The translations under genes were made by a program, and so were the position numbers. From an uncultured Kiloniellales bacterium (GTDB lineage Bacteria > Actinomycetota > Acidimicrobiia > Spongiisociales > UBA5794), in contig CAXMOP010000115.1 in the NCBI GenBank assembly GCA_964195155.1, positions 4,986 through 68,985 of the forward strand: 64,000 nucleotides of DNA. The letters run 5' to 3'. How positions within the stretch are numbered: the stretch's first letter is position 1; each line of letters begins with the position of its first letter. This document shows, in pieces, positions 1,869 through 43,048 of the stretch. Below the pieces are notes generated by a model. The model did not search any database. It saw only the letters and a list, made by a program, of their open reading frames with translations, and was not told the DNA's origin.

Positions 1869-2285
1869 ATGAAGAACCAAGACGCTCGCAGCTCCCTGTT
1901 GGGCAGGGCGATGACCGACAACGGCCTGTTCTCCGGCACCGCCGGCATCGTGCTCATCATCGGTGCGGCGTTCGGCCTCGGTGGCTGGATCGGCATCAAC
2001 GCCTGGCTCCTGGCCGGCCTCGGAGTCGGTCTGGTGGTGTACGCCGCCGATCTGTTGTGGTTGGCGCGCTCCTCCCGCATGATCGTCGCCGGCGGACGGG
2101 CCGCGGTGCTGGCCGACGTCGCCTGGGTGATCGCCGCCGCAGCGTTGATTGCCTTCAGCGCGGTGCTGACCCGGCAGGGAGAGCTGGCCCTCGCCATCGT
2201 CAGCATTGTCGTCGCCGGGTTCGCAGCCGCTCAATGGATCGGCCTGAGGCGACTCAGCGACGCTGAGGACCACACCGCGGTGTAG
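1869..2285 (+). CDS. Small integral membrane protein (4 predicted TM helices), divergent partner of the XRE/MmyB regulator
   Basis: ATG at 1869 with a GGAGGA Shine-Dalgarno sequence 5 nt upstream. The hydrophobic segments are clear. Confidence 0.6.
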   Translation: MKNQDARSSLLGRAMTDNGLFSGTAGIVLIIGAAFGLGGWIGINAWLLAGLGVGLVVYAADLLWLARSSRMIVAGGRAAVLADVAWVIAAAALIAFSAVLTRQGELALAIVSIVVAGFAAAQWIGLRRLSDAEDHTAV

Positions 2286-2303
2286 ACCGTGTAGACAAGG
2301 GGC

Positions 2304-2886
2304 GTGCTCATCCGACGGGCGGTTCTCGACGGGGTCGTAGCGGGCGAGATCGATCTCGCCTTTCGACGCTGGGATCGCCCGTCGGTCAAGGTCGGAACCC
2401 GACAGCGCACGGCGGTGGGGATCATCGAGATCACGGCCATGGAGGTGATCGACCTCGCCAACATCACCGACGAGGAGGCCGTCCGAGCCGGCGCGGCATC
2501 GGCGGCCGAGATCCGGGCATGGCTCGGAGCAAGAACCGGCTCGGTCTATCGCATCAGCCTCATATACGCGGGAACCGACCCCAGGGTGGCGTTGCGCAAG
2601 GCCGAGATCACTACCGATGAGGACCAGTCGAAGTTGGCCGCTCAATTGGACCGCTTCGATGGAACCGGGCGCCGCGGGCCTTGGACGGTTGCGGTGCTGC
2701 GGGCCATCGGAGATGCGCCCGGCACCCCGGCGGCGGGATCTCGCCTTGCGGTTCGGCCGCGAGAAGCGCCTCTTCAAAACCGACGTGCGGAAACTGAAGG
2801 AACTCGGCCTCACCGAGAGCCTGCGACCAGGGTATCGGCTGTCGCCGCGGGGCCGGTCGTTCCTGAAACGGCTCGACGAAGACTAG
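2304..2886 (+). CDS. Hypothetical protein with an apparent +1/-1 frameshift near 2724-2738 (frame 0 from 2304, frame 1 to 2886)
   Basis: The frame-0 product looks protein-like up to GDAPGTPAAG. Frame 1 continues as RDLALRFGREKRLFKTDVRKLKELGLTESLRPGYRLSPRGRSFLKRLDED. The switch falls in the run caccccggcggcggg. Downstream, frame 0 reads antisense through gtrA and is not coding. Confidence 0.4.
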
Positions 2887-3035
2887 AGGATGCGCGGATA
2901 GGTGATCGGCCTTCTCGACAGAGGTGCTTCTTTGCCTTCCGCTCTTGCTGCTTCGCAGCGGGCCGCTCGGGCCCCGGCTCAGCGGATACTCTTTCTCAGA
3001 TCGTGACCGGAATCGCGCCCTACCCGCTGAGCCTC

Positions 3036-3503
3036 TTAGTCGGCCGCTACCGGCTCAGCCGCTTCCTCCCCGGCGAGGGCACGGCCGAACACGATGTCAC
3101 GGTACGAGGCGAACTTGGGGAGCAGGATCATCACCGAGGCGAACAGATAGACCCCGTTGGCGGCAACGGCAGACAGCGGGCCGAAGAACGACTCGGCAAG
3201 CCACATGATGCCGGCAGTCACCGCCCAGGCAGCCCCATTGACCAGGTAGAACTGGAAGGTCTCGCGCCCGGACAGTTTCCCGTCGCGCAGCTCAAAGGTC
3301 CAGGTGCGGTTGAGCAGGTAGGAGAGGAACGTCGTCACGGCGAAGGCAACCGACACCGAAGCCACCGACGACCAGTCGAATCCGATCAGGAAGAGGTTGA
3401 ACAGCGCAAACGACACCACGGTATTGACCACGCCGACCACGCCGACCTTGACGAACTGGTCGAGCGACTCACGATTGAGGAAGCTCTCGACATACTGCTT
3501 CAC
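3036..3503 (-). CDS. GtrA-family small membrane protein (polysaccharide/lipid-sugar flippase-like)
   Basis: GTG at 3503 preceded by GAGAGGA. It is a 155-aa protein with 4 TM helices and matches the GtrA/DUF2304 profile (VKVGVVGVVNTVVSFALFNLF...). The GTGA overlap with the upstream gene's stop (3500-3503) indicates translational coupling. Confidence 0.8.
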   Translation of the reverse strand: MKQYVESFLNRESLDQFVKVGVVGVVNTVVSFALFNLFLIGFDWSSVASVSVAFAVTTFLSYLLNRTWTFELRDGKLSGRETFQFYLVNGAAWAVTAGIMWLAESFFGPLSAVAANGVYLFASVMILLPKFASYRDIVFGRALAGEEAAEPVAAD

Positions 3504-32542: not shown

Positions 32543-33208
32543 ATGACGGCAAAGGGTGGCAACGGTCGGCTTCCCCTCTCCTACCTGACCCTGCGACGGA
32601 CTTTGGGAATCCTGGGCATGGCGCTTCCGGTGATTTTGGTGATCGGCGGCCTCATCTTCACCTCCAACAGCGAGATCGAGAACACCATCAGCGACTATTA
32701 CGACACCATCATGGTGGGCGTCTTTGTCGGCGTGCTGTTTGCCATTGCCACGTTCATGTTCTCCTACCTCGGCTACGAGATGCCGAACAGGGGACGATTC
32801 GAGGCTACCGACAACATCGCCGGCAACCTGGCGGCCCTCTTCGCCGTCCTGGTGGCGCTGTTCCCGACCACCCATTCCGTGCAGTGGGTGCGAGGCGTGC
32901 ACCTGGCATCGGCGTTGCTGTTCTTCATGACCCTGGCGTACTTCTCGATCCACTTGTTCACCAAGACCACGCCGGGCGAGACCGCGCAGGGGAGAAAGGC
33001 CGATCGGAACCGGATCTACCGAGTCTGCGGCTGGGCCATCATCCTGTTCATCGCCCTGATCGCCGTCTACTTCCTGTTCTTCCAGGACACGGGCATCGCC
33101 GATCTCAAGCCCGTGCTCGTGCTCGAGTCACTTGCGCTGTGGGCATTTGGCATCTCCTGGCTGGTCAAGGGCGATACGTTGCTCCAGGACTCACCGCCCG
33201 CCCGGTGA
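32543..33208 (+). CDS. Hypothetical membrane protein (5-6 TM helices); first gene of the low-GC island
   Basis: ATG at 32543 with a GAGGTG Shine-Dalgarno sequence. GC content is clearly lower than in the flanking DNA. Confidence 0.55.
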
Positions 33209-33393
33209 GCGCTTCCGGTCGAGCCTCGAGCCCGAGGCGATCGCCGAACGGCGGATGGCGAGTTGAGGCCCGAGGGCAGCGCGGTATTGCCGGTTCTCGG
33301 ACGCCGCGACGTGGGTTGGTGAGCCGGCGCGTGCGTCGTTATGTGCGGTCTGCGCAGACGGTGGAAACCGACGATCTTGCCAGGGGTCAGGGA

Positions 33394-33415
33394 GCGCATA
33401 TTGCCGGATATGCGC
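33394..33415. promoter_or_regulatory. Island palindromic motif copy a: GCGCATATTGCCGGATATGCGC
   Basis: An 8-bp perfect inverted repeat around a GCCGG core. It lies upstream of the MBL hydrolase gene. A related copy is at 33454-33473. Confidence 0.6.
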
Positions 33416-33540
33416 TAGCTGATCTTGACGAACCGCTACGGGGAGCGCGAACAGAATGCCGGTTATGTGCGGGTGTCTGGGGGCCTTCTCCGGGCCCCGT
33501 CAGAACGAACTAGGGTGCGTCGACCCGAAGGAGGCCTTCT

Positions 33541-34677
33541 TTGTCGAACTTTGTCCTAGCGCATCTGGGTGGTACTACAGCGCTTACTACTGAGCCGGTC
33601 GTCGGGTCATCAGATATTGACCCGAGCGTGGCATTTCTGCCCGGGACCGAGGAGCTCGCCGAAGGTGAGATCCGAGTGTCAATCTTGGGTTCCGGGTTGC
33701 CGTGGGTGACCAAGTCGCAGGCATCCGGATCGGTTCTCATGGAGGTGGGCAATCCCGAAAAGGATGTGCTCGTCTTCGATATGGGAACAGGATCGCTGGC
33801 GAACTTCAGCGGTCTTCAAGTTCCTGTCACAAGCCTGAAGAACGTGTTCTTGAGCCATCTACATGCAGACCACATCTCCGACTACGTCACATTCATGGGC
33901 AGCTACGTCAAGGCTGGACGTCTAGACCCTGTCGAGGTGTGGGGTGGAGCGTCCGACGATCCCACATTGGGCCTTGCGACTTTCGTGGACCACATTCAGC
34001 GAGCCCTCGCGTGGGACCAGGCCTCAATCGAGGGATATGTACCTACTACCGGAGGACATGCCACCGCTCACGAAGTTCCATACGACAGGACTGAGGTGAT
34101 CTACGAGCGCAATGGCGTAACCATCACTTCGTTCCCAGTCATCCACGTCCTCAACGGTGCGGTGGGTTTCCGCGTCGATTACGGCGGGCAGTCCGTCGTG
34201 TTCTCTGGCGACACCCTCCCAACGATGACGCTTGTTGAGGCCTCTCAGAATTGTGATCTCCTGATCCACGAGGCAGCCCTTCCCGCCGAGCTGTTTGCCG
34301 AGTTGTACAGCTTCCCGATCGAGCAGGCGCGGATGGTCATCAATGAAGGCCACACCCCCGCCAACGCTGCTGGAATGGTGTTCGACATGGTGACGCCGCG
34401 AATGGCAGCCATGTGGCACACGGCCGTTGTAGACAAGTACGTCGATCCTTTCTTTGAGTCTCTCCGCACGACGTACTCCGGGCCGGCAACGCTGTGCCAG
34501 GACCTAACCGTGTTCAACGTCACGGCCGACGCCGTCACCGCCCGCCAAGCGACCATCGATTGGACCCAACAGGCGGTCGTAGGCGAATCCGATACCGCCC
34601 GGTCCTACGCAGAGCGGCGTCCCAGCCCGACATGGTTCGCCGACGCATATATCGACTGGCAGTCAAAACTCGGCTAA
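33541..34677 (+). CDS. MBL-fold metallo-hydrolase
   Basis: The HLHADHISD motif (HxHxDH) is present. TTG start at 33541, 7 nt after AAGGAGG. Confidence 0.75.
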   Translation: MSNFVLAHLGGTTALTTEPVVGSSDIDPSVAFLPGTEELAEGEIRVSILGSGLPWVTKSQASGSVLMEVGNPEKDVLVFDMGTGSLANFSGLQVPVTSLKNVFLSHLHADHISDYVTFMGSYVKAGRLDPVEVWGGASDDPTLGLATFVDHIQRALAWDQASIEGYVPTTGGHATAHEVPYDRTEVIYERNGVTITSFPVIHVLNGAVGFRVDYGGQSVVFSGDTLPTMTLVEASQNCDLLIHEAALPAELFAELYSFPIEQARMVINEGHTPANAAGMVFDMVTPRMAAMWHTAVVDKYVDPFFESLRTTYSGPATLCQDLTVFNVTADAVTARQATIDWTQQAVVGESDTARSYAERRPSPTWFADAYIDWQSKLG

Positions 34678-34680
34678 TCA

Positions 34681-34752
34681 GCCGCACATAACGGCACATA
34701 GTGGGCGGTCGCCTCCAGCTAGCGCATATCGGCACATATGCGCATATGTGTC
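34681..34752. promoter_or_regulatory. Island palindromic motif copies c1 and c2 (CCGCACATAACGGCACATAGTGGGCGG and GCGCATATCGGCACATATGCGCATATGTG)
   Basis: Directly visible in the convergent spacer after the MBL gene. Confidence 0.6.
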
Positions 34753-34855
34753 GATTGGGCGGGGGATTGGGTGCGTGTCTATGAAGCGCGAAGCGGCGCT
34801 GTGGACGTTTGCCGAGTCCGACGATTGAGTCGGGTCTTCTGTGGGTGAGTGGCGG

Positions 34856-35170
34856 TCAGCCCACCTCGACGTATTCCGAAATTGTCTTCATGAACTCGTC
34901 GGGGTCATCTGGGGTGACCGTGGCCCGTAGACGGCCGCCAGCATCTATCGCAATCCCCGTGGTCTTGTGTCGGCGTGCAGTGTCCCAGTTATACCAGTTC
35001 GACCATCCGCCCGGACCGAGTCCTATGACCCTCCACCGCCCGCCGAATCCCATCTCAAACACCTCGACTGATCGAATCTCGCCGTACGGAACCCGCTTCT
35101 CGCCCAATAGCCCGTAGCGAGCGATCGTGATACCCGTGTCATCGGCTCGCACCGTGTTGTCCTCATACAT
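34856..35170 (-). CDS. Bacterial PH-domain (bPH_2-like) small protein
   Basis: 104 aa. ATG at 35170. Confidence 0.5.
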   Translation of the reverse strand: MYEDNTVRADDTGITIARYGLLGEKRVPYGEIRSVEVFEMGFGGRWRVIGLGPGGWSNWYNWDTARRHKTTGIAIDAGGRLRATVTPDDPDEFMKTISEYVEVG

Positions 35171-35305
35171 CAGCCGCAGAGTATTGACACACTCGTCGTA
35201 TCAACACCGCCGCTGTCGCCGGTCGAATGAGCCACATCTCAATCGGGCGCGGCGGACTCACGAGGCCCAGACGCCCTCCGTCAGACAGTTCGGATTGAGA
35301 AGGCC

Positions 35306-35375
35306 CCCCCATAACCGGCAATATGGGCGGTTTCGCCCGGCGGGTCGGGTAGCGCATATGTGCCGATATGGGCGG
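35306..35375. promoter_or_regulatory. Island palindromic motif copies d1 (CCCCCATAACCGGCAATATGGGCGG) and d2 (GCGCATATGTGCCGATATGGGCGG)
   Basis: Directly visible. d2 ends at the ridA stop codon. Confidence 0.6.
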
Positions 35376-35834
35376 CTATTGGATCTCGACGATCGCCTCG
35401 ATCTCTACCGGTATGTTCATTGGAAGCGATCCAAGTCCGACCGCTGAACGTGCATGCCGTCCAGCCTCGCCGAATACGTCCGCCAGTAGATCAGAGCACC
35501 CGTTGATGACAGCCGGGTGATCAGTGAAATCGGTCGTGCAATTCACCATCCCCAGCACCTTGACTACCCTTACGACCTCGTCAAGCGAACCGAGATTCTT
35601 TCGAAGCGTCGCAAGCAAGCCAAGGCATGTGACTCGTGCCGCCTCGCTAGCTTCATCGGTATCGAGGTCCTCTCCAACCTTGCCGGTCATCCACGACCCG
35701 TCGGCGCGCATCGGGCCATGACCGGACGTGTAGGCGAGGTTCCCCGTTCGCACAAACGTGACATAGGACGCAATCGGATCGGGAGGTGAGGGCAACACCA
35801 AACCGAGTTCCTTGAGTCGAGCCTCCGCCGACAT
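35376..35834 (-). CDS. RidA/YjgF-family reactive-intermediate deaminase
   Basis: 152 aa with typical RidA fold motifs. ATG at 35834. Confidence 0.8.
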   Translation of the reverse strand: MSAEARLKELGLVLPSPPDPIASYVTFVRTGNLAYTSGHGPMRADGSWMTGKVGEDLDTDEASEAARVTCLGLLATLRKNLGSLDEVVRVVKVLGMVNCTTDFTDHPAVINGCSDLLADVFGEAGRHARSAVGLGSLPMNIPVEIEAIVEIQ

Positions 35835-35920
35835 CAGACGCTCCTGCCTCTACGAATCCCCCGAGGGTACAGGCCCACGTCTCCCGTCAACATTCTCGGC
35901 CGCACCAAGCCACTCAGAGA

Positions 35921-35944
35921 GCGCATATGTGCCGATATGGGCGG
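35921..35944. promoter_or_regulatory. Island palindromic motif copy e: GCGCATATGTGCCGATATGGGCGG
   Basis: Identical to d2, and located upstream of ridA. Confidence 0.6.
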
Positions 35945-35954
35945 GTGTTTGGTG

Positions 35955-37124
35955 TCAGCCGCAGGTGGCCTCGGAGCTGCTACTGACGGTATCGATCCAG
36001 TGGACGGATTGTCCGGTGGCGATGTCGCCTGTGGAGATCGTCCCTGATGCGGTGTATGTCGAGGGGTCGACGTTGAAGGTGTGGCGGTAGTCCGTTTCGT
36101 TGCCTGTTGTAGTGATGATCCCGGAGAACGTGTCGGTGGGGGCGCGGGATGGGATTTGGCGGTCATCGAGTCGGATGCTGGCGTGTAGGGGGCCGCCCCA
36201 GTCTCCCCACGTCAGGATCACTTGACACTCGCCCGAGCTTGGATCCCTGGACAGTTGGAGTGTTAGTTCAGCTTCGAGGGACGGCTTGTCGTTCAAACTG
36301 GCCTGTACGTCGATGAAGTTGCCTGCCAGCGGTACCAGTCGCGGGTTCCCGTAGAGGAAATCGACGTCGGCAACACCTGGGGTATTGGAGAACCGGAGGA
36401 ACATGGTGCGAGCGAATGGTCTGAAGATGCCCACGGTGTCAGGACCAGGCAGGTCGTCCTTCTGTGCCCAGTCACCGGCGATGATCCTGTCACCAGGATC
36501 TCCGTAGTAGAAGGTGCTATCGGCGATCCCCTGGGTATTCGAGTTCCGGAGGAACACCTGTCCGGTTGATTCGCGGTGGAGACCGACGGTGTCGATGTCG
36601 TCGTCGTCGAAGTCGCCTACGAACGGCTTGTCGAGAGGATTCCCGTAGTAGAACGAGTAGCTGGCCGCGCCCAGACCCTGTTCCCCACTGCCGAGACTGT
36701 CGAATATGAAGACTTGACCCTGCGACGGCCGGTACAGCGACACCGTATCGCACCCGTCCCCGTCGAAATCTCCTGTGATCGGAACGTCACCACGGCTGCC
36801 GAGGTAGAACCTGACATCGCCCTCTCCGATCGCGATGTGATTCCGCAGGTACACGTATCCATCCGTCGGTCGGAACATGCCTGGCGTATCCCAGCCATCG
36901 CAGTCCCAATCACCGACGATCGGGATATCTCCGGGTACGCCGAAGAAGAATCTATAGCTCGAAATCGTCCCGGATTGCTCGTGCTGCTGACGCAGGTACC
37001 ACAGGCCCGATGTGGTATCAACCACACCGACGGTGTCCTCGGGCGTCTCGGCCAAAACCGGAGCCGGTAAGGCGAGCCAACCGAGCACGACAATCAACAC
37101 AAGAGCCGTCACTGTCACCCTCAC
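35955..37124 (-). CDS. Secreted FG-GAP / beta-propeller repeat protein
   Basis: The signal peptide is VRVTVTALVLIVVLGWLALPAPVLA. At least five repeats of F(Y)YG.PGD.P..GD[WF]D.DG.DT.G.FRP follow. The start is GTG at 37124, or TTG at 37160. Confidence 0.7.
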   Translation of the reverse strand: MRVTVTALVLIVVLGWLALPAPVLAETPEDTVGVVDTTSGLWYLRQQHEQSGTISSYRFFFGVPGDIPIVGDWDCDGWDTPGMFRPTDGYVYLRNHIAIGEGDVRFYLGSRGDVPITGDFDGDGCDTVSLYRPSQGQVFIFDSLGSGEQGLGAASYSFYYGNPLDKPFVGDFDDDDIDTVGLHRESTGQVFLRNSNTQGIADSTFYYGDPGDRIIAGDWAQKDDLPGPDTVGIFRPFARTMFLRFSNTPGVADVDFLYGNPRLVPLAGNFIDVQASLNDKPSLEAELTLQLSRDPSSGECQVILTWGDWGGPLHASIRLDDRQIPSRAPTDTFSGIITTTGNETDYRHTFNVDPSTYTASGTISTGDIATGQSVHWIDTVSSSSEATCG

Positions 37125-37388
37125 CGACACCCCCGGACCCTCCACAATTTCGATCCTCAACGATCACGGATCATACGACTCAGACTATGAGAGGAAACGG
37201 ACCATGGTTCCCCATGACGTCCGGCTCAGCTAGCTCCTAGACGCCGAAGGAAGAGCGATCGCCGAATGGAATGGTGCTGCGGACGACCAGACGCTCGACT
37301 CTCTGCTCGAACAGTCCCTCGGGTGATCAACCCGGCCGAACGCCACCAAACCAATGACCTTCGGCGGCACGTCAAACCTCCGACCACA

Positions 37389-37414
37389 CCCGCCCATAAC
37401 CGGCAATATGCGCC
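37389..37414. promoter_or_regulatory. Island palindromic motif copy f: CCGCCCATAACCGGCAATATGCGCC (reverse complement of copy a type)
   Basis: Directly visible in the divergent spacer between the FG-GAP gene and the HNH gene. Confidence 0.6.
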
Positions 37415-37585
37415 CCCTACGTCCCGGTCTCCAGAGGCAGGACCGGGTACAGCACGAACACCGATCACCCGGTCTGAGCGACATCGCCGACATCCACGAG
37501 TGCTCTGGAACGGCACTTCGGAGTGCGGTCAGTTTCCTTGCATTTCTTCTGGAATCTGTCACCCGCACCGTGTAGGATCGAACAT

Positions 37586-38821
37586 ATGTTCGATAGAGAA
37601 TTCACCTCTGTCCCCGATGGGCTCGACGACATGGAACCAAGCGTGGAGTTGGCAACCGCGCTCAATGACATCGACGTCGATCTGGTGTCGCCGCATGACC
37701 GGATCATCGTCATCCGCGCCTACGCCCGAATGGAGTCCTACTACCAGGCCCGCAAGTATCGCGCCATGGCCTCGGTCGCCGACGCCTTGGAAGAAGACGA
37801 CATGCAGCATGGCCTCGACACCGCTGCCGCCGAGATCCAAGCCGCCCTGTGTCTGACCCGCCGCGCTACCGAAACCGAACTCGGGTTCGCGTTGGATCTG
37901 TGGCATCGCCTTCCGCAGGTCTGGTCTGCGTTGGCGGCGGGGATGATCGACTACCGGAGGGCCCGGGTCATCTCCCTCGGGACGGTCCACCTCGACACCG
38001 GTGCCGCATGGGAAGTCGTCGAACGCATCTTGGAGGACGCCGGCCGGCTCACCTCCGGCGAGCTGCGGAGCCGTCTGCACCGGATGGCGATCGAAGCCGA
38101 CCCGGAGGACGCGCGGCTCCGCTACGAGGACGCCGTCAAGGAGCGGCGAGTGGTTCTCGAACCCGCCGATGACGGGACCGCCAACCTGCTCGGCCTCCAG
38201 CTGGCTCCCCATCGCGCCGCAGCTGCTTCCCGTCATGTGAACCATCTCGCCCGATCGCTGAGGACGAGGGACGAGACCCGCACCATGGATCAACTCCGCG
38301 CCGACGTCCTCATCGACCTGCTCTTGGGCAAGGCACACAGCGGCAAGAAGGCGGGAGCGGTGAATTTGCGGGTCGATCTGGAAACCCTCTCAGGCCTCGC
38401 CGAAGACGCAGGTGAGTTGAACGGCTACGGCCCGGTGATCGCCGACATCGCCCGCCAGATCGCCGCTGAAGCCGAAGATGCCGAATGGCGCTACGCCATC
38501 ACCGACCCGCACACCGGCCAATTGATCACCGACGGGACCACCCGCCGTCGCCCCACCGCCGCGTTGCGCCGCACCGTGGAGGCAAGAGATCAGACCTGTG
38601 TGTTCCCCGGCTGTCGCGTGCCCGCGGTCGACTGCGACTTCGACCACAGCACCCGATGGGCCGACGGCGGCGAAACCACAGAAGACAACGGCGCCCCCCT
38701 CTGTCGCCACAACCACATCACCAAGGACCAACTCGGTTGGAGCTACCGGCGGCTCCGTGACGGCCGCTACCGATGGCGCAGCCGACTCGGCCACACCTAT
38801 TACAGCGCCAGATCCCCATAG
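37586..38821 (+). CDS. DUF222 (REP13E12-family) HNH endonuclease
   Basis: The N-terminal DUF222 region is followed by a C-terminal HNH motif, CVFPGCRVPAVDCDFDHSTRWADGGETTEDNGAPLCRHNH. Confidence 0.8.
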   Translation: MFDREFTSVPDGLDDMEPSVELATALNDIDVDLVSPHDRIIVIRAYARMESYYQARKYRAMASVADALEEDDMQHGLDTAAAEIQAALCLTRRATETELGFALDLWHRLPQVWSALAAGMIDYRRARVISLGTVHLDTGAAWEVVERILEDAGRLTSGELRSRLHRMAIEADPEDARLRYEDAVKERRVVLEPADDGTANLLGLQLAPHRAAAASRHVNHLARSLRTRDETRTMDQLRADVLIDLLLGKAHSGKKAGAVNLRVDLETLSGLAEDAGELNGYGPVIADIARQIAAEAEDAEWRYAITDPHTGQLITDGTTRRRPTAALRRTVEARDQTCVFPGCRVPAVDCDFDHSTRWADGGETTEDNGAPLCRHNHITKDQLGWSYRRLRDGRYRWRSRLGHTYYSARSP

Positions 38822-38838
38822 TCGATCGCGCCGGCGCG

Positions 38839-39912
38839 CTACCCGACCGTGTACAGCTCGCGGTCCGACCGGTTCAACCGCTCCACGCCGTCGTCGGTGA
38901 CCGTCACGATGTCTTCGATCCGCATCCCCCAGTGACCGGGTTGGTAGATGCCCGGCTCGATGGAAAAAGCCATGCCGGAGACCAGCTCAGTGGTGTCTCC
39001 TTTGACGAGATAGGGTCGCTCGTGGGTGTCGAGGCCGATACCGTGCCCGGTGCGGTGGATGAAGAGCTCGCCGTATCCGCCGTCCTCGATCACGGTCCGA
39101 GCTGCGACATCAATGGACCCGGCGGTTACCCCCGGCTTCACCGCATCCACGGCCGATCGTTGCGCGGCGCCGAGCACCTCGTACGCCTCGGCGAACCCCC
39201 CCGGGGGGTCTCCCACCACGAACATGCGAGTGGTGTCGGATCCGTATCCATCGAGCCAGCCGCCGAAGTCAACGACAACGGCGTCGCCACGCTCGATCAT
39301 CCGGCCGGTCGGCTCGTGGTGGGGCGATGCGCCGTTTGGCCCGGAGGCGACGATGGCAAAGCCGCTCCTCTGATGGCCCGAGTCGAGCGTCATCTCGTCG
39401 ATCAGCCGCGACAGCTCGCGTTCGCTGCGCCCTGAGAACCTGGTCGCCCCCAGCCGGGCAACCACCGCGTCGGTGGCTGCACCCGCGGCGCGGAGAGACG
39501 CGATCTCGCCCTCGTCCTTCACCATGCGCAGCTCGGACATCAGCGGTTCGGCCGGTTCGAACCGCGCACCCGGCAGCCGGGTCTGCATGCCGATCAAGAA
39601 GGTTGCCCAGGTCTGGTTGCCAACGGCGACGGTGGAAGCGTTGCCGATCAGGCCAGCGAGGATCGCGATTGGATCCTCGGTCTCCGACCAGGCCCGCTTC
39701 TCCACACCGGACTCGACGCGCACCTCCTCGAGCACCGGTACCAACAGGACTGGATCACCCTCGGCGGGCAGCACCAGTGCGGTGATGCGCTCGTTCTCCA
39801 TTGCCTGGTACCCGATCAGATACGGCAGATCGGATCCAACGGTGACGACGAGGGCATCGACGCCGCGGCGAGCCATCTCCAGTCGCGCCGAAGCGATCCG
39901 GCGCTCGTTCAC
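38839..39912 (-). CDS. M24-family Xaa-Pro aminopeptidase/dipeptidase
   Basis: A pita-bread fold with HRTGHGIGLDTHE metal ligands. GTG start at 39912. Confidence 0.8.
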   Translation of the reverse strand: MNERRIASARLEMARRGVDALVVTVGSDLPYLIGYQAMENERITALVLPAEGDPVLLVPVLEEVRVESGVEKRAWSETEDPIAILAGLIGNASTVAVGNQTWATFLIGMQTRLPGARFEPAEPLMSELRMVKDEGEIASLRAAGAATDAVVARLGATRFSGRSERELSRLIDEMTLDSGHQRSGFAIVASGPNGASPHHEPTGRMIERGDAVVVDFGGWLDGYGSDTTRMFVVGDPPGGFAEAYEVLGAAQRSAVDAVKPGVTAGSIDVAARTVIEDGGYGELFIHRTGHGIGLDTHERPYLVKGDTTELVSGMAFSIEPGIYQPGHWGMRIEDIVTVTDDGVERLNRSDRELYTVG

Positions 39913-41555
39913 GTGGCCTGGGCGAGCGAGTCGCGGGCGTGATAGGAGGAACGGACCAGCGGACCGGACTCAACATGGCTGATCCCGAGAGACTCGCCGT
40001 GGCTGCGATATCTGGCGAACTCATCGGGATGGACGTAGCGATGGATCGGGCGGTGCCGCGGCGTTGGCCGGAGGTACTGGCCGATCGTGACCAGATCGAC
40101 GCCGACCGCCCGGAGGTCGGCGAGCGTCCCGAGCACCTCTTCCTCGGTCTCCCCCATCCCGACGATCAGGCCCGACTTCACCGTGCCCGCCGGGTTGAGC
40201 CACTTGGCTCTCGCCAGCAGGGTCAACGACCGTGCGTAGTTGGCGGCGGTGCGGATCTCCCGTTGCAGACGCAGCACGGTCTCGGTGTTGTGATTGAGGA
40301 CCTCGGGCTTCTCGCCGACCATGGACTCGAGAGCGTCCCGATCGCCCTTGAAGTCGGGGATCAGCACCTCGACGTCGCAGCCGGGAACGAGGTCGCGGAT
40401 CCTTCGGACCGTCTCAGCAAAGATCCCGGCGCCACCGTCGGGAAGGTCGTCGCGGTTGACCGAGGTCAATACCGCGTGACGCAATCCCATCTGCTGTATG
40501 GCCTCGGCGGCCCGCAGCGGCTCATCGACGTCGACCTCGCCGGGCTTGCCCGTGTTGACGTCGCAGAAGGAACAGGCGCGGGTGCAGGTATCACCGAGCA
40601 GCATCAAGGTCGCAGTGCCGGCCTCCCAGCACTCATAGATGTTGGGGCAACCCGCTTCCTCGCACACGGTGTTGAGCTCGAGTCCCCGCATCAGCTGCTT
40701 CAGCTCCCCGTATCCGTCAGAGCCAAGGTTTGCCCTGACCTTCATCCATTCGGGACGAGCCGGCTCGCCCGGGAGGAGGCCACCGATCAGGATCGGGGTC
40801 TCCCCACGGCCGGCCGCGGAGAACGCACCGGATGCGACCATCGCATCGACGTCGTACCGGCCGGATCGCTCGCTTGGCCGGAAGGCGCCGAGCTGTATCT
40901 CCGGCTCCACGGATCCAAAGACTGCCGCTGCGTGCGGAACCAGGGCATCGATGACGGACTCCATCGGGAGATGCTCACCGATCAGCTGGGCGATCGAGGT
41001 CACCGGCCGGTCGGCGATCCCGCATGGGACGATGTTGGAGAAGTATGCAAGGTCCGGGTCCACGTTGAGGGCAAAGCCGTGGGTTGAAACTCCCCGGGCA
41101 ACCCGAACCCCGATGGCGGCCACCTTGCCCCGCCCGGTCCACACGCCGGTCTGGCCGGCCTCGGCCCAGGCTTCGATGCCGAGATCGGCGAGGGCGGCGA
41201 TGAGCATCGCCTCGAGGCGGCGAACGTGGCCGACCATGTCCCAGCCATTTGCCAGCTTCGGGATAGCAACGATCGGGTAGCCGACGAGCTGGCCGGGGCC
41301 GTGGTACGTGATGTCGCCGCCGCGATCGACGTGGTGCAACCTGGCACCAATCGCGTCGAGGTCGGCCTCGGCGATGGTGAGATTGGATCCGTCACCGTTT
41401 CGGCCGACCGTGTAGGTATGCGGGTGCTCCAGCAGCAGCAGGTAGTCGTCCGCGGACCGACCCTCGGTTCGTCCCTCCCAGAACGCACGCTGCAGGTCCC
41501 ATGCCTCGTCGTACTCGACGCGGCCGAGCCACCGCACACGGAGGCGGTGGCTCAT
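39909..41555 (-). CDS. In-frame fusion of octanoyltransferase LipB (N-terminal, about 238 aa) and lipoyl synthase LipA (C-terminal, about 310 aa)
   Basis: ATG at 41555 forms an ATGA overlap with the E2 gene stop. The LipB catalytic region includes TYHGPGQLVGYPI and the catalytic C of ...VPCGI. LipA then follows with RPEWMKV, the [4Fe-4S] triad CEEAGCPNIYEC and the radical-SAM triad CTRACSFC. There is no stop codon between the two halves. Confidence 0.8.
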   Translation of the reverse strand: MSHRLRVRWLGRVEYDEAWDLQRAFWEGRTEGRSADDYLLLLEHPHTYTVGRNGDGSNLTIAEADLDAIGARLHHVDRGGDITYHGPGQLVGYPIVAIPKLANGWDMVGHVRRLEAMLIAALADLGIEAWAEAGQTGVWTGRGKVAAIGVRVARGVSTHGFALNVDPDLAYFSNIVPCGIADRPVTSIAQLIGEHLPMESVIDALVPHAAAVFGSVEPEIQLGAFRPSERSGRYDVDAMVASGAFSAAGRGETPILIGGLLPGEPARPEWMKVRANLGSDGYGELKQLMRGLELNTVCEEAGCPNIYECWEAGTATLMLLGDTCTRACSFCDVNTGKPGEVDVDEPLRAAEAIQQMGLRHAVLTSVNRDDLPDGGAGIFAETVRRIRDLVPGCDVEVLIPDFKGDRDALESMVGEKPEVLNHNTETVLRLQREIRTAANYARSLTLLARAKWLNPAGTVKSGLIVGMGETEEEVLGTLADLRAVGVDLVTIGQYLRPTPRHRPIHRYVHPDEFARYRSHGESLGISHVESGPLVRSSYHARDSLAQAT

Positions 41556-43048
41556 CGCAGTTCCTGTTCCCAATCCCAGGATTCGAGGTTCCGCTTGATT
41601 TGGGCGAGGAACAGCACCGCCGTCGAGCCGTCGAATGCCCGGTGGTCCCAGCTGAGCCCGAGATACCCGATGTGACGAATGGCAACGGTGTCGGTGCCGT
41701 CGGGAAGGGTCACCACAACCGGGCGCTTCACCACGGTGTCGGTGGACAGGATGGCGACGTTTGGCTGGTTGATGATCGGTGCGCTCATGAACGAGCCGAA
41801 CGGCCCCGGGTTGGTGATCGTGAACGTGCTGGTGGAAAGATCCTCCGGATGGAGCTTCCCGGCGCGGGCGCGTTCCGCAACACCGCGGATGTCCCGGGCA
41901 AGGCCGGTGAGGCTGCCCGAGTCGGCCTCAGGGAGGGTCAGGACGATGAGCCCTCCCTGACTGAGGTCGACGGCGATGCCGAGGTCAACGCCGCTGTGGA
42001 ACGTCTGTGTGCCCGCTTCGAGGTCGAACGAGCTGTTCACCGCCGGGTAGGCGCCGAGGGCATCGATCGTCGCCCGCGAGATGAACGGGAGGTAGGTGAG
42101 CGAGAAACCCTCGGTTTCCTTGAAACGCGGCCCGTGCCCTTGACGGGCTCGGGCGACCGACTCGAAATCCACCTCGACCGAGGTCCACACGTGAGCCGAA
42201 GTTTGCTTCGAGGCGATCATGTGCTCTGCCGTGACGCGACGGATCTTCGTCATCGGTGTGACCCCGCCGGCCTCGTCGGCCGTAGGCGCCGCCGCGTCGG
42301 CCGCGGGCACGACCAGTTCGGCCGCTGGTGGCTCTGCTCGCTCCTGGGGCTCGACGGCGACCGCAACCACCGGCTCCTCGACAATCACTTTGGTCGTTGC
42401 GGCCACTGCGCCCGTGGCAACGAATGCCTCAACATCCTTTCGGGTGATCCGGCCACCGGTGCCGGTGCCGACAACCTGATCGAGGTCCACGCCGTTGTCG
42501 GCGGCGAGCTTCCGCACCACCGGCGAGAGCTGCGCCCGTCGTGAGTCGTCGCCTGCAACAGCGGTCGTCGCGGCGGCTGCGGCGACGGGGACGGCCGGTT
42601 GGACGGGAGCCGACTCGGCCGGCGTCGATGCCACCGCGTCGGAGGACTCGGGCGGCGGTCGCTCGGTACCCGTTGGCCCCTGCTGCGACCACACCGCGCC
42701 CGCGCCGGCCGGTGCCTGGGCGGCGACCGGCTGTGGCGAAGGGGCCTCTTCGGGGGCTGCTTCCGCTGCTGGCTCCGTCACCGGTTCTTCCGCCGCCCCC
42801 GGCTCCTCGTCGGCGCCGGTGATGACGACGATCTCGGTACCGACCTCGACCGTTTCGCCCTCCTGGACGAGGATCTGCTCGATGACGCCGGCTACCGGCG
42901 ACGGCATCTCGGTGTCGACCTTGTCGGTGGAGATCTCGACGAGAACCTCATCGATGGCGATCTCGTCGCCGACCTGCTTCGCCCAGGAAAGGATGGTGCC
43001 CTCGGTGACCGTTTCACCGAGTTGGGGCATCGTGACCGTCACTGCCAT
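41552..43048 (-). CDS. Dihydrolipoyllysine-residue acyltransferase (E2 of a 2-oxo-acid dehydrogenase complex; DlaT/SucB-like)
   Basis: ATG at 43048, 9 nt after GGAGGAG. A single lipoyl domain (EISTDKVDTE) is followed by an Ala/Pro linker, a PSBD and a catalytic domain with the DHRAFDG motif. Confidence 0.85.
   Translation of the reverse strand: MAVTVTMPQLGETVTEGTILSWAKQVGDEIAIDEVLVEISTDKVDTEMPSPVAGVIEQILVQEGETVEVGTEIVVITGADEEPGAAEEPVTEPAAEAAPEEAPSPQPVAAQAPAGAGAVWSQQGPTGTERPPPESSDAVASTPAESAPVQPAVPVAAAAATTAVAGDDSRRAQLSPVVRKLAADNGVDLDQVVGTGTGGRITRKDVEAFVATGAVAATTKVIVEEPVVAVAVEPQERAEPPAAELVVPAADAAAPTADEAGGVTPMTKIRRVTAEHMIASKQTSAHVWTSVEVDFESVARARQGHGPRFKETEGFSLTYLPFISRATIDALGAYPAVNSSFDLEAGTQTFHSGVDLGIAVDLSQGGLIVLTLPEADSGSLTGLARDIRGVAERARAGKLHPEDLSTSTFTITNPGPFGSFMSAPIINQPNVAILSTDTVVKRPVVVTLPDGTDTVAIRHIGYLGLSWDHRAFDGSTAVLFLAQIKRNLESWDWEQELR

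Follow-up and report, generated by a model that had tools for sequence, protein, structure and literature searches.

The textbook example of a device that stockpiles gene cassettes and shuffles them is the integron. Its integrase, IntI, is a tyrosine recombinase distinguished by an additional domain within the catalytic fold. The integron has one array downstream of attI/Pc, its cassettes are mostly promoterless and co-oriented, and its attC sites, 57-141 bp long, consist of imperfect inverted repeats, contain R'' (RYYYAAC) and R' (GTTRRRY) boxes and are recombined as a folded single strand. The core sites of the Xer/dif systems, ~28 bp long, are built from two inverted arms around a 6-bp centre in which strand exchange takes place, such as GGTGCGCATAA-TGTATA-TTATGTTAAAT in Escherichia coli and CACGCCGATAA-TGCACA-TTATGTCAAGT in F. 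alni, and dif modules (pdif modules) have so far been described for Acinetobacter. We analyzed here a stretch of 64,000 bp (the window) of the contig CAXMOP010000115.1, positions 4,986 to 68,985, belonging to a metagenome-assembled genome (MAG) that is labelled an uncultured Kiloniellales bacterium and is placed in Acidimicrobiia by GTDB. An island in the window contains short palindromic motifs in the spacers between its genes. We regard it as probable, at roughly 0.7, that these motifs are core sites of a tyrosine recombinase of the Xer-like type and that the island is made up of mobile gene cassettes arrayed between such sites.

Eight significant and three degenerate sites (S0, S1 and S6) were identified, all located within 33280-37413 of the 64 kb. 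An earlier note, made from the sequence alone, had described the motif as a single degenerate, AT-rich consensus. When the region 32800-38000 was read through, all the copies listed there were present, and one further weak copy, which had been missed, was found at 33280-33301. The copy listed as partial at 33336-33348 turned out to be a right half-site only (S1, 33325-33348), and the sequence at 34722-34752, taken as one copy, consisted of two overlapping opposite sites, S5 (34716-34743) and S6 (34740-34764). Instead of one degenerate consensus, the copies followed an ungapped motif with two classes of centre, and the AT-richness applied to the inner arms but not to the rest of the motif. The common register of the window copies was an 8-bp arm, a 6-bp centre and an 8-10-bp arm, which widened to 8-14, 6 and 8-13 bp across all copies including those from other contigs. 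The arms are inverted, GCGCATAT versus ATATG[G/C]GC on either side of the centre, and in the full form the L arm is CAG[G/C]TAGCGCATAT and the R arm is ATATGGGCGGGTG. The centre of class V2 is GTGCCG (S4, S5, S8 and S9, along with S6 carrying the mutated form GTGTCG), and that of class V1 is TGCCGG (S2, S3, S7 and S10).

The exact 24-mer GCGCATATGTGCCGATATGGGCGG was found twice, at 35352 and 35921, as the earlier note had stated for two identical copies, and once more with three mismatches, while none was expected from 100 shuffles. A looser dyad, CATAWNSSSSNWTATG, gave seven matches against 0.14 expected, all of them in 33397-37410. Profile hidden Markov models (HMMs) for the two classes were trained solely on sites from other contigs; 299 distinct V2 and 128 distinct V1 34-mers were collected. 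The V2 profile recovered S8, S9, S5 and S4 in the window with E values of 5e-11 to 1e-4, and the V1 profile recovered S2, S7, S10 and S3 with E values of 4e-10 to 1e-3. Apart from these eight sites, the scan of the 64 kb returned no match with E < 0.1, in agreement with the earlier statement that the motif occurs in every island spacer and nowhere else in the window. The island, the sites and the cassette genes are as follows.

33194-38837: inserted island, absent from a syntenic relative
33280-33301, + strand: S0, weak V1-like site, CGCGGTAT TGCCGG TTCTCGGA (V1 profile, E 0.13)
33325-33348, + strand: S1, half-site keeping only the right arm TTATGTGCGG (V2 profile, E just 8.4)
33388-33421, + strand: S2, V1 site with two L-type arms, CAGGGAGCGCATAT TGCCGG ATATGCGCTAGCTG (V1 profile, E 4.4e-10)
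33449-33473, + strand: S3, V1 site with a degenerate left arm, GAACAGAA TGCCGG TTATGTGCGGG (V1 profile, E 1.3e-3)
33541-34677, + strand: cassette gene 1, hydrolase of the metallo-beta-lactamase (MBL) fold, 378 aa (Pfam Lactamase_B_2 and Lactamase_B)
34682-34708, - strand: S4, V2 site, reading CCCACTAT GTGCCG TTATGTGCGG on the reverse strand (V2 profile, E 1.3e-4)
34716-34743, - strand: S5, V2 site, both arms of the L type, forming the left half of the pivot (V2 profile, E 2.2e-7)
34740-34764, + strand: S6, V2 site with centre GTGTCG and a decayed R arm, overlapping S5 by 4 bp (register alignment)
34856-35170, - strand: cassette gene 2, 104 aa (Pfam bPH_5, bacterial PH domain, below the cut-off)
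35304-35330, - strand: S7, V1 site forming a canonical composite with S8, the centres being 45 bp apart (V1 profile, E 2.1e-8)
35346-35378, + strand: S8, consensus V2 site, CGGGTAGCGCATAT GTGCCG ATATGGGCGG (V2 profile, E 5.2e-11; exact 24-mer match)
35376-35834, - strand: cassette gene 3, RidA/YjgF family, 152 aa (Pfam)
35915-35947, + strand: S9, consensus V2 site, CAGAGAGCGCATAT GTGCCG ATATGGGCGGGTG (V2 profile, E 2.4e-10; exact 24-mer match)
35955-37160, - strand: cassette gene 4, 391-403 aa depending on the gene call (no Pfam match)
37386-37413, - strand: S10, V1 site, the rightmost one, reading GCGCATAT TGCCGG TTATGGGCGGGTGT on the reverse strand (V1 profile, E 2.2e-7)

With the orientation of the centres, the layout reads S2+ S3+ (MBL gene, +) S4- S5-, followed by S6+ (104-aa gene, -) S7- S8+ (RidA gene, -) S9+ (~400-aa gene, -) S10-. 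The island thus consists of two mirror-image halves meeting at 34716-34764, the S5/S6 pivot, where two inverted sites face each other with their L arms, overlap by 4 bp and enclose no gene. The earlier note had favored an operator for a dimeric transcription factor, which would make the island genes a single regulon. The dyad symmetry, the length of 22-28 bp and the location of some copies 70-230 bp upstream of gene starts (S2/S3, S7, S9 and S10) fit this explanation. However, the sites lay at stop codons as often as upstream of genes, with S8 ending 1 bp before the RidA stop, S9 lying 10 bp from the stop of the next gene and S4 5 bp past the MBL stop, and no promoter-like hexamers coincided with them. 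The Pfam scan agreed with the earlier note that there is no regulator gene inside the island. The component absent from the island is instead a recombinase gene, present in related arrays.

The same site was present in many other contigs. Pattern scans of species-representative genomes and of metagenome contigs detected a site of ~33 bp, CAGGTAGCGCATAT-GTGCCG-ATATGGGCGGGTG, in at least 300-350 unrelated contexts. Among the matches listed, 67 distinct genome-contig contexts had the unit CAG[G/C]TA GCGCATAT GTGCCG ATATGGGCGG GTG in common, and most of the matches came from Acidimicrobiia and Actinomycetota MAGs, where they lay on short contigs. A number of sites were located in bins labelled Gammaproteobacteria, Kiloniellaceae or Gemmatimonadota, which may be mis-binning. 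As only the ~33 bp was conserved in the 67 contexts and the flanks were unrelated, the repeat is not a long miniature inverted-repeat transposable element (MITE). The exact V2 core was found neither in viral contigs nor in the plasmids searched.

Neighbor statistics were obtained from 175 fetched loci with 490 sites. Neighboring V2 sites formed 123 pairs in direct repeat, with a median spacing of 690 bp, whereas inverted V2 pairs numbered just eight. A V1 site lay inverted immediately upstream of a V2 site in 107 cases (hereafter the composite), and 71 cassettes were bounded by V2 and V1. The spacing between the V1 and V2 centres showed a sharp peak at 45 bp (106 of the 351 V2 contexts at 43-47 bp) and a minor peak at 34-36 bp, that is, one helical turn less. 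The cassettes, mostly carrying a single gene, were highly diverse, with 459 open reading frames (ORFs) falling into 324 clusters, 257 of which were singletons. Their products include cyclase-ATPase regulators, ECF (extracytoplasmic function) sigma factors, SnoaL-like proteins, methyltransferases, sulfatases, and IS110 and IS3 transposases. The commonest family was a regulator joining adenylate/guanylate cyclase, AAA ATPase and TPR parts, up to ~1050 aa, in 22 loci (including L123, L149, L235, L163 and L255); these cassettes are far larger than typical integron cassettes.

Comparison of the contigs located the breakpoints at the sites. Among the V2 sites with both flanks available, 11 pairs shared both flanks, 11 shared the L side only and 21 the R side only. 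The L-arm variants (e.g. CGGCCA..., TAGGTA... and GAGCATAG) travelled with the L flank and the R-arm variants (GGGCGGCTAT and ATATGCGCTACCTG) with the R flank, and V1 sites showed the same segregation of arm variants with their own flanks. Because the variants segregate in this manner, the exchange lies between the arms. Three of the window cassettes recurred elsewhere with the homology ending at sites. The region 34740-35376 (cassette 34740-35330) was 96% identical in L168, a contig from another metagenome with both outer flanks unrelated. The identity there begins at V2 and continues near-perfectly through the end of the right arm of V1, and L168 has an intact V2 at the position equivalent to the decayed S6. 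The RidA cassette was 86% identical at the nucleotide level in L258, where it is bounded by degenerate V2 sites, and the MBL cassette was 78% identical in L173, adjoining a V1/V2 composite.

A tblastn probe detected a gene for a 304-aa tyrosine recombinase adjoining a V2 site in L162. More than 100 homologues with 72-98% identity (length range, 301-305 aa) were found, nearly all on contigs of 1-5 kb, and two of them were named Acidimicrobiia proteins by source. In six independent contexts (L162, L250-252, L253, L254, L257 and L255/256) the gene lies between inverted sites, and in all six the L arms of the flanking sites face it, which is the geometry of the S5/S6 junction in the window. On the upstream side, an inverted GTGCCG-centred site is located 50-85 bp before the start codon and is followed by a leader conserved in most contexts; the upstream partner in L162 is an L-arm half-site only, with the centre GTGTTT. 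On the downstream side, a site is located 1-12 bp past the stop codon in five contexts and ~160 bp past it in L250, and the one in L253 has the decayed centre GTGAGG. Further canonical sites on both sides point away from the gene in L250, L253, L254 and L257, with an extra switch of orientation farther left in L250, and L255/256 contains only variant sites, CATAA GTGCCG YTATG. The site variants are array-specific, namely ATATGGGCGG, TTATGTGCGG and, in L255, a CATAA...TTATG type.

The recombinase scored 145-156 bits on the XerC/XerD equivalog models (cut-offs 330-335, that of XerD being 330), 44-53 bits on NF011946 (cut-off 435), and 74-88 bits on the integron-integrase model TIGR02249 (cut-off 265), the last match covering the final 64 residues only. 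Its best solved relative was XerD (1a0p), with which the catalytic R, K, H-x-x-R, H and Y all align. The linked enzyme is a simple Xer-like tyrosine recombinase, neither XerC/D nor IntI. With regard to the operator explanation, the identical site stands beside more than 300 unrelated gene families, its flanks recombine at the site, and its conserved neighbor is a recombinase gene and not a regulator, so that a role in co-regulating the island genes is very improbable.

Other recombinase-like genes were encountered near the sites. L162 itself is AT-rich and phage-like at 1-2270, with a second, unrelated integrase, and GC-rich at 2270-3406, where the recombinase is encoded; the switch falls exactly at V2, and reflects either a real junction or chimeric assembly across the repeat. 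In L105, a 310-kb long-read contig of Actinomycetota, the array lies inside a tRNA-Ala island with an Xis-like gene and a phage-type integrase, and a 305-bp cassette at 400-1030 is present as a tandem duplicate with a site at every junction. The phage-type integrase of L105 was considered as the cassette enzyme and rejected, as it adjoins tRNA-Ala and resembles the integrase of an ordinary island. An integrase remnant in L140 was uninformative.

Among the nearest described systems are Xer/dif, pdif modules and integrative mobile elements exploiting Xer (IMEX), with which the present sites have in common the arm/6-bp centre/arm architecture, inner arms of CATA(A/T)...(A/T)TATG, unequal arms, and gene modules between sites. 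The sites might accordingly be dif-like and used by the housekeeping XerC/XerD of the host, as chromosomal analogues of the Acinetobacter pdif modules or of IMEX requiring no dedicated recombinase. The window island indeed carries no recombinase gene, the L arm GGTAGCGCATAT is similar to the XerC arm of gammaproteobacteria, and modules delimited by V2 and an inverted V1 are reminiscent of pdif modules with their inverted boundary sites; in the window, at least the module 34740-35330 is bounded by inverted sites of two kinds. However, the R arm is unrelated in its outer part to the conserved XerD arm (TTATGTTAAAT or TTATGTCAAGT), lacking the motif GTCAAGT that is kept even in the predicted dif of Acidimicrobium ferrooxidans, and a dedicated Xer-like gene, far below the XerC/XerD cut-offs, is physically tied to the sites. 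The V2 sites are direct repeats and do not alternate as C/D and D/C. With respect to the inverse, alternating order of pdif sites along a replicon, the arrays gave a mixed picture, V2 and V1 alternating inversely in the 107 composites and 71 cassettes but 123 V2 neighbors being in direct repeat. Moreover, the arrays are chromosomal, not on Rep_3 plasmids and not at a demonstrable terminus, and inspection of GC skew gave no sign of the island lying at the replication terminus. We therefore consider use by XerC/XerD unlikely, though it is the strongest of the alternatives. Three MAGs of Ilumatobacteraceae/Actinomycetota (L029, L079 and L083) have in common a different single palindrome, TTTCACGCGCATATGAWCCCATATGCGCGGTGACRT, which is unrelated to the predicted A. 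ferrooxidans dif and might be another site class or a lineage-specific dif.

The organization of the arrays is close to that of integrons. A tyrosine recombinase gene lies beside arrays of small, diverse, mostly single-gene cassettes with directly repeated sites, the window island corresponds to an array without integrase, and the composite of ~70 bp is built from two inverted simple sites, as 59-base elements were described. The island could thus be an integron array without integrase (a cluster of attC sites lacking integron-integrase, CALIN), the composite being an atypical attC that an IntI encoded at another locus would recombine in folded single-stranded form. In contrast to attC, which is defined by structure, the present sites are sequence-conserved duplex palindromes of 22-34 bp with an invariant 6-bp centre. 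The composite folded no better than shuffled sequences (z -1.4 and -1.7), and RYYYAAC/GTTRRRY boxes were absent, the nearest to R' being GTTATGG with five of seven positions by reading. An intact partner centre was found for only about one-third of the V2 sites. Since the other two-thirds lack one while V2 stays invariant, the V1-V2 pairing is not maintained. The arrays extend as mirror images on both sides of the recombinase gene, the cassette genes have no common orientation, and the enzyme is plain Xer-like without an IntI-specific match, the integron-integrase model being matched by its last 64 residues only. The tblastn probes detected no IntI, either in the fetched loci or in the window, and the host belongs to a phylum, Actinobacteria, whose genomes yielded no complete integrons (PMC4889954). 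Taken together, a CALIN is a quite unlikely explanation.

The sites also recall repetitive extragenic palindromic (REP) sequences and their paired forms (REPINs), which are spread by REP-associated tyrosine transposases (RAYTs). REPs form stable hairpins and lie between genes throughout a genome in many copies, together with a RAYT gene that is present once. Both REPs and the present sites are short palindromes whose 5' part contains GTAG, the L arm having GTAG and then a palindrome in a REP-like manner, and both often occur as inverted pairs with a short spacer. The sites might thus be considered as REP/REPINs that came in with DNA of a donor rich in REPs, or as targets of IS110-family elements. 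Some insertion sequence (IS) families target attC, REP or pdif sites, and the IS110 genes in the arrays, present in at least seven loci, recall them. The sites, however, are not dispersed in the 64 kb but confined to the island, where up to eight of them stand in 4 kb, a density 10-20 times above that expected for REPs. The commonest L-centre-R form folds weakly, at just -4.6 kcal/mol (z -0.9), and forms no stable hairpin. A Y1 transposase was matched neither in the loci nor in the window, with a weak probe (an E. coli YafM query), and neither mosaic flanks that break at the sites nor a linked tyrosine recombinase is characteristic of REPs. This origin is as improbable as a CALIN. The IS110-family (DEDD) transposase genes inside arrays were observed in L157, L153, L239, L214, L137, L185, L087, L254 and L255. 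Scans of the window with Rfam at gathering thresholds and for tRNA gave no matches.

Shufflons (Rci/sfx) and other multiple-inversion systems provide a further comparison, as the recombinase gene here is flanked by inverted presumed sites, and recombination between the left and right sites would invert the segment holding this gene. The segments here, however, are independent accessory genes and not alternative ends of one gene, the sites are mostly direct repeats, and the cassettes are common to unrelated contigs.

The island was compared with the same locus in relatives. A syntenic relative (L240/L241) showed 86% nucleotide identity to the window up to 33193, with the alignment resuming at 38838. 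It lacks the 5.6 kb consisting of the array and a DUF222/HNH gene, and there 5 bp separate the stop codons of the membrane-protein and prolidase genes. The 5.6 kb is an insertion, because the relative aligns continuously on both sides without it. The GC content of the island is 60%, compared to ~65% in the flanks. In this respect, the alternative offered in the earlier note, a small MITE- or REP-like element specific to acquired DNA, is closer than its operator reading: the motif is indeed confined to an insertion absent from the relative, although it is not a MITE and, on its distribution and folding, does not behave like a REP. In the species of the window, all the contigs with the exact RidA or MBL protein share one arrangement, and no within-species polymorphism of the island was seen among them. 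As there is no recombinase gene at the pivot, several sites have decayed and the arrangement is invariant across samples, the window island is probably a frozen, orphan array.

A recombinase supplied in cis or in trans would bind both arms as a dimer and would exchange strands in the 6-bp centre, GTGCCG in V2 or TGCCGG in V1. Circular cassettes with one site would integrate at a resident site, and an element with inverted terminal sites would thus grow two mirror-image arrays. Recombination between direct sites would excise a cassette, and that between left and right sites would invert the intervening segment. V1, inverted at 45 bp (or ~35 bp) from V2, may serve as a second heterospecific or accessory site for which helical phasing matters. 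The window array would be mobilisable, if at all, only in trans. Extended to the whole family of arrays, we propose, with slightly less than even confidence, an independently evolved capture platform analogous to the integron in Acidimicrobiia (Actinomycetota). It would comprise an Xer-like gene between inverted duplex core sites, two mirror-image arrays, two heterospecific site classes separated by one or more helical turns, and cassettes common to marine metagenomes, possibly across phyla if the binning of the MAGs is right.

Several points weigh against the assignment of the motifs as recombinase core sites in a cassette array. The link to the recombinase is co-location in six contigs, all reached from one site-adjacent gene, and recombination by this enzyme is inferred. 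No recombinase gene was found within the 64-kb window by tblastn, which included an E. coli XerD query. At the present resolution, homologous recombination in identical repeats of 24-33 bp predicts the same breakpoint pattern, and among the fetched loci no pair differed cleanly by the presence of a single cassette within otherwise identical flanks. The best-scoring ORFs under a codon model were oriented 66 versus 66 relative to the site, for which the model gives no reason; a test with the longest ORFs, which the codon-model test replaced, was also 50:50. The arm combinations LR, LL and RR all exist, and neither these nor the role of V1 are accounted for. The empty locus in L240/L241 carries no site, which leaves the entry route of the island unaccounted for. 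In addition, many matches are on short, possibly mis-binned contigs, and the host range is accordingly uncertain.

Two further features occupy the right end of the island.

37414-37530, + strand: conserved non-coding segment of ~115 bp, adjoining S10 on its L-arm side and containing the inverted repeat CCCGGTC...GACCGGG
37585-38821, + strand: DUF222/HNH endonuclease gene (Pfam DUF222 and a weak HNH match)

The ~115-bp segment was 79-84% identical beside sites in L146 (2361-2464), L024 (1594-1705), L047 and L222, and L146 and L024 have a V2 site at the position homologous to the V1 site S10. The segment was considered as a leader of the recombinase, which was rejected on comparison with the recombinase contexts. 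The DUF222/HNH gene gave no tblastn match in any other array locus, and was rejected as an array-associated enzyme on that ground; it may have arrived beside the array as a mobile gene in its own right, or may have assisted the insertion of the island. At the left end, S2 and S3 (33384-33473) include an 81-bp block in which a perfect V1 carrying two L arms is separated by a 35-bp spacer from a decayed V1 (TGCCGGTTCYCGGACGC). The block was 90-94% identical in L169, L180 and L179 and was also noted for L206 and L234; the TGCCGGTTCYCGGACGC element, which also forms part of S0, occurs in the same five contigs. A unit of ~115 bp holding the block is repeated periodically at this end of the island.

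As for the cassette products, the MBL-fold protein (33541-34677) had a weak precomputed Pfam match to Anti-Pycsar Apyc1 (PF23023), which hints at a cyclic-nucleotide phosphodiesterase rather than a beta-lactamase. Cassette gene 4 contains an internal repeat with copies 153 bp apart and shows 69% nucleotide similarity to part of L050. Core genes flank the island; they encode transketolase, a DUF998-like membrane protein, prolidase and a LipB-LipA fusion. Among named relatives, those most similar to the transketolase come from Acidimicrobiia MAGs, with 79-81% identity. The best homologues of the DUF998-like protein (32543-33208) are spread over several phyla, and an LtrA gene replaces it in one relative, standing at the island position with no array. 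Given this replacement, the interval between prolidase and transketolase (tkt) is a variable spot even without the array. A third relative, L261, with an 87% identical transketolase, has other cassettes beside tkt along with decayed site variants, GCGCATATGTGCCTGATGGGCGGG. The fusion at 39909-41573 joins a LipB-like lipoyl(octanoyl) transferase to lipoyl synthase (radical SAM) in 548-554 aa, and is kept in the relatives examined.

No description of the site sequence or of such arrays was found in the open-access literature searched, and the proposed integron-like gene-capture system in marine Acidimicrobiia is apparently undescribed so far. If the proposal is true, a large uncultured lineage of marine actinobacteria would own a cassette platform that uses a different recombinase and an ordinary duplex core site, representing a second, convergent solution to cassette capture. 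It would also explain the assembly of the accessory regions of these MAGs into many short contigs. The compact recombinase, with a 34-bp site and a natural heterospecific site pair, could then serve for cassette exchange.

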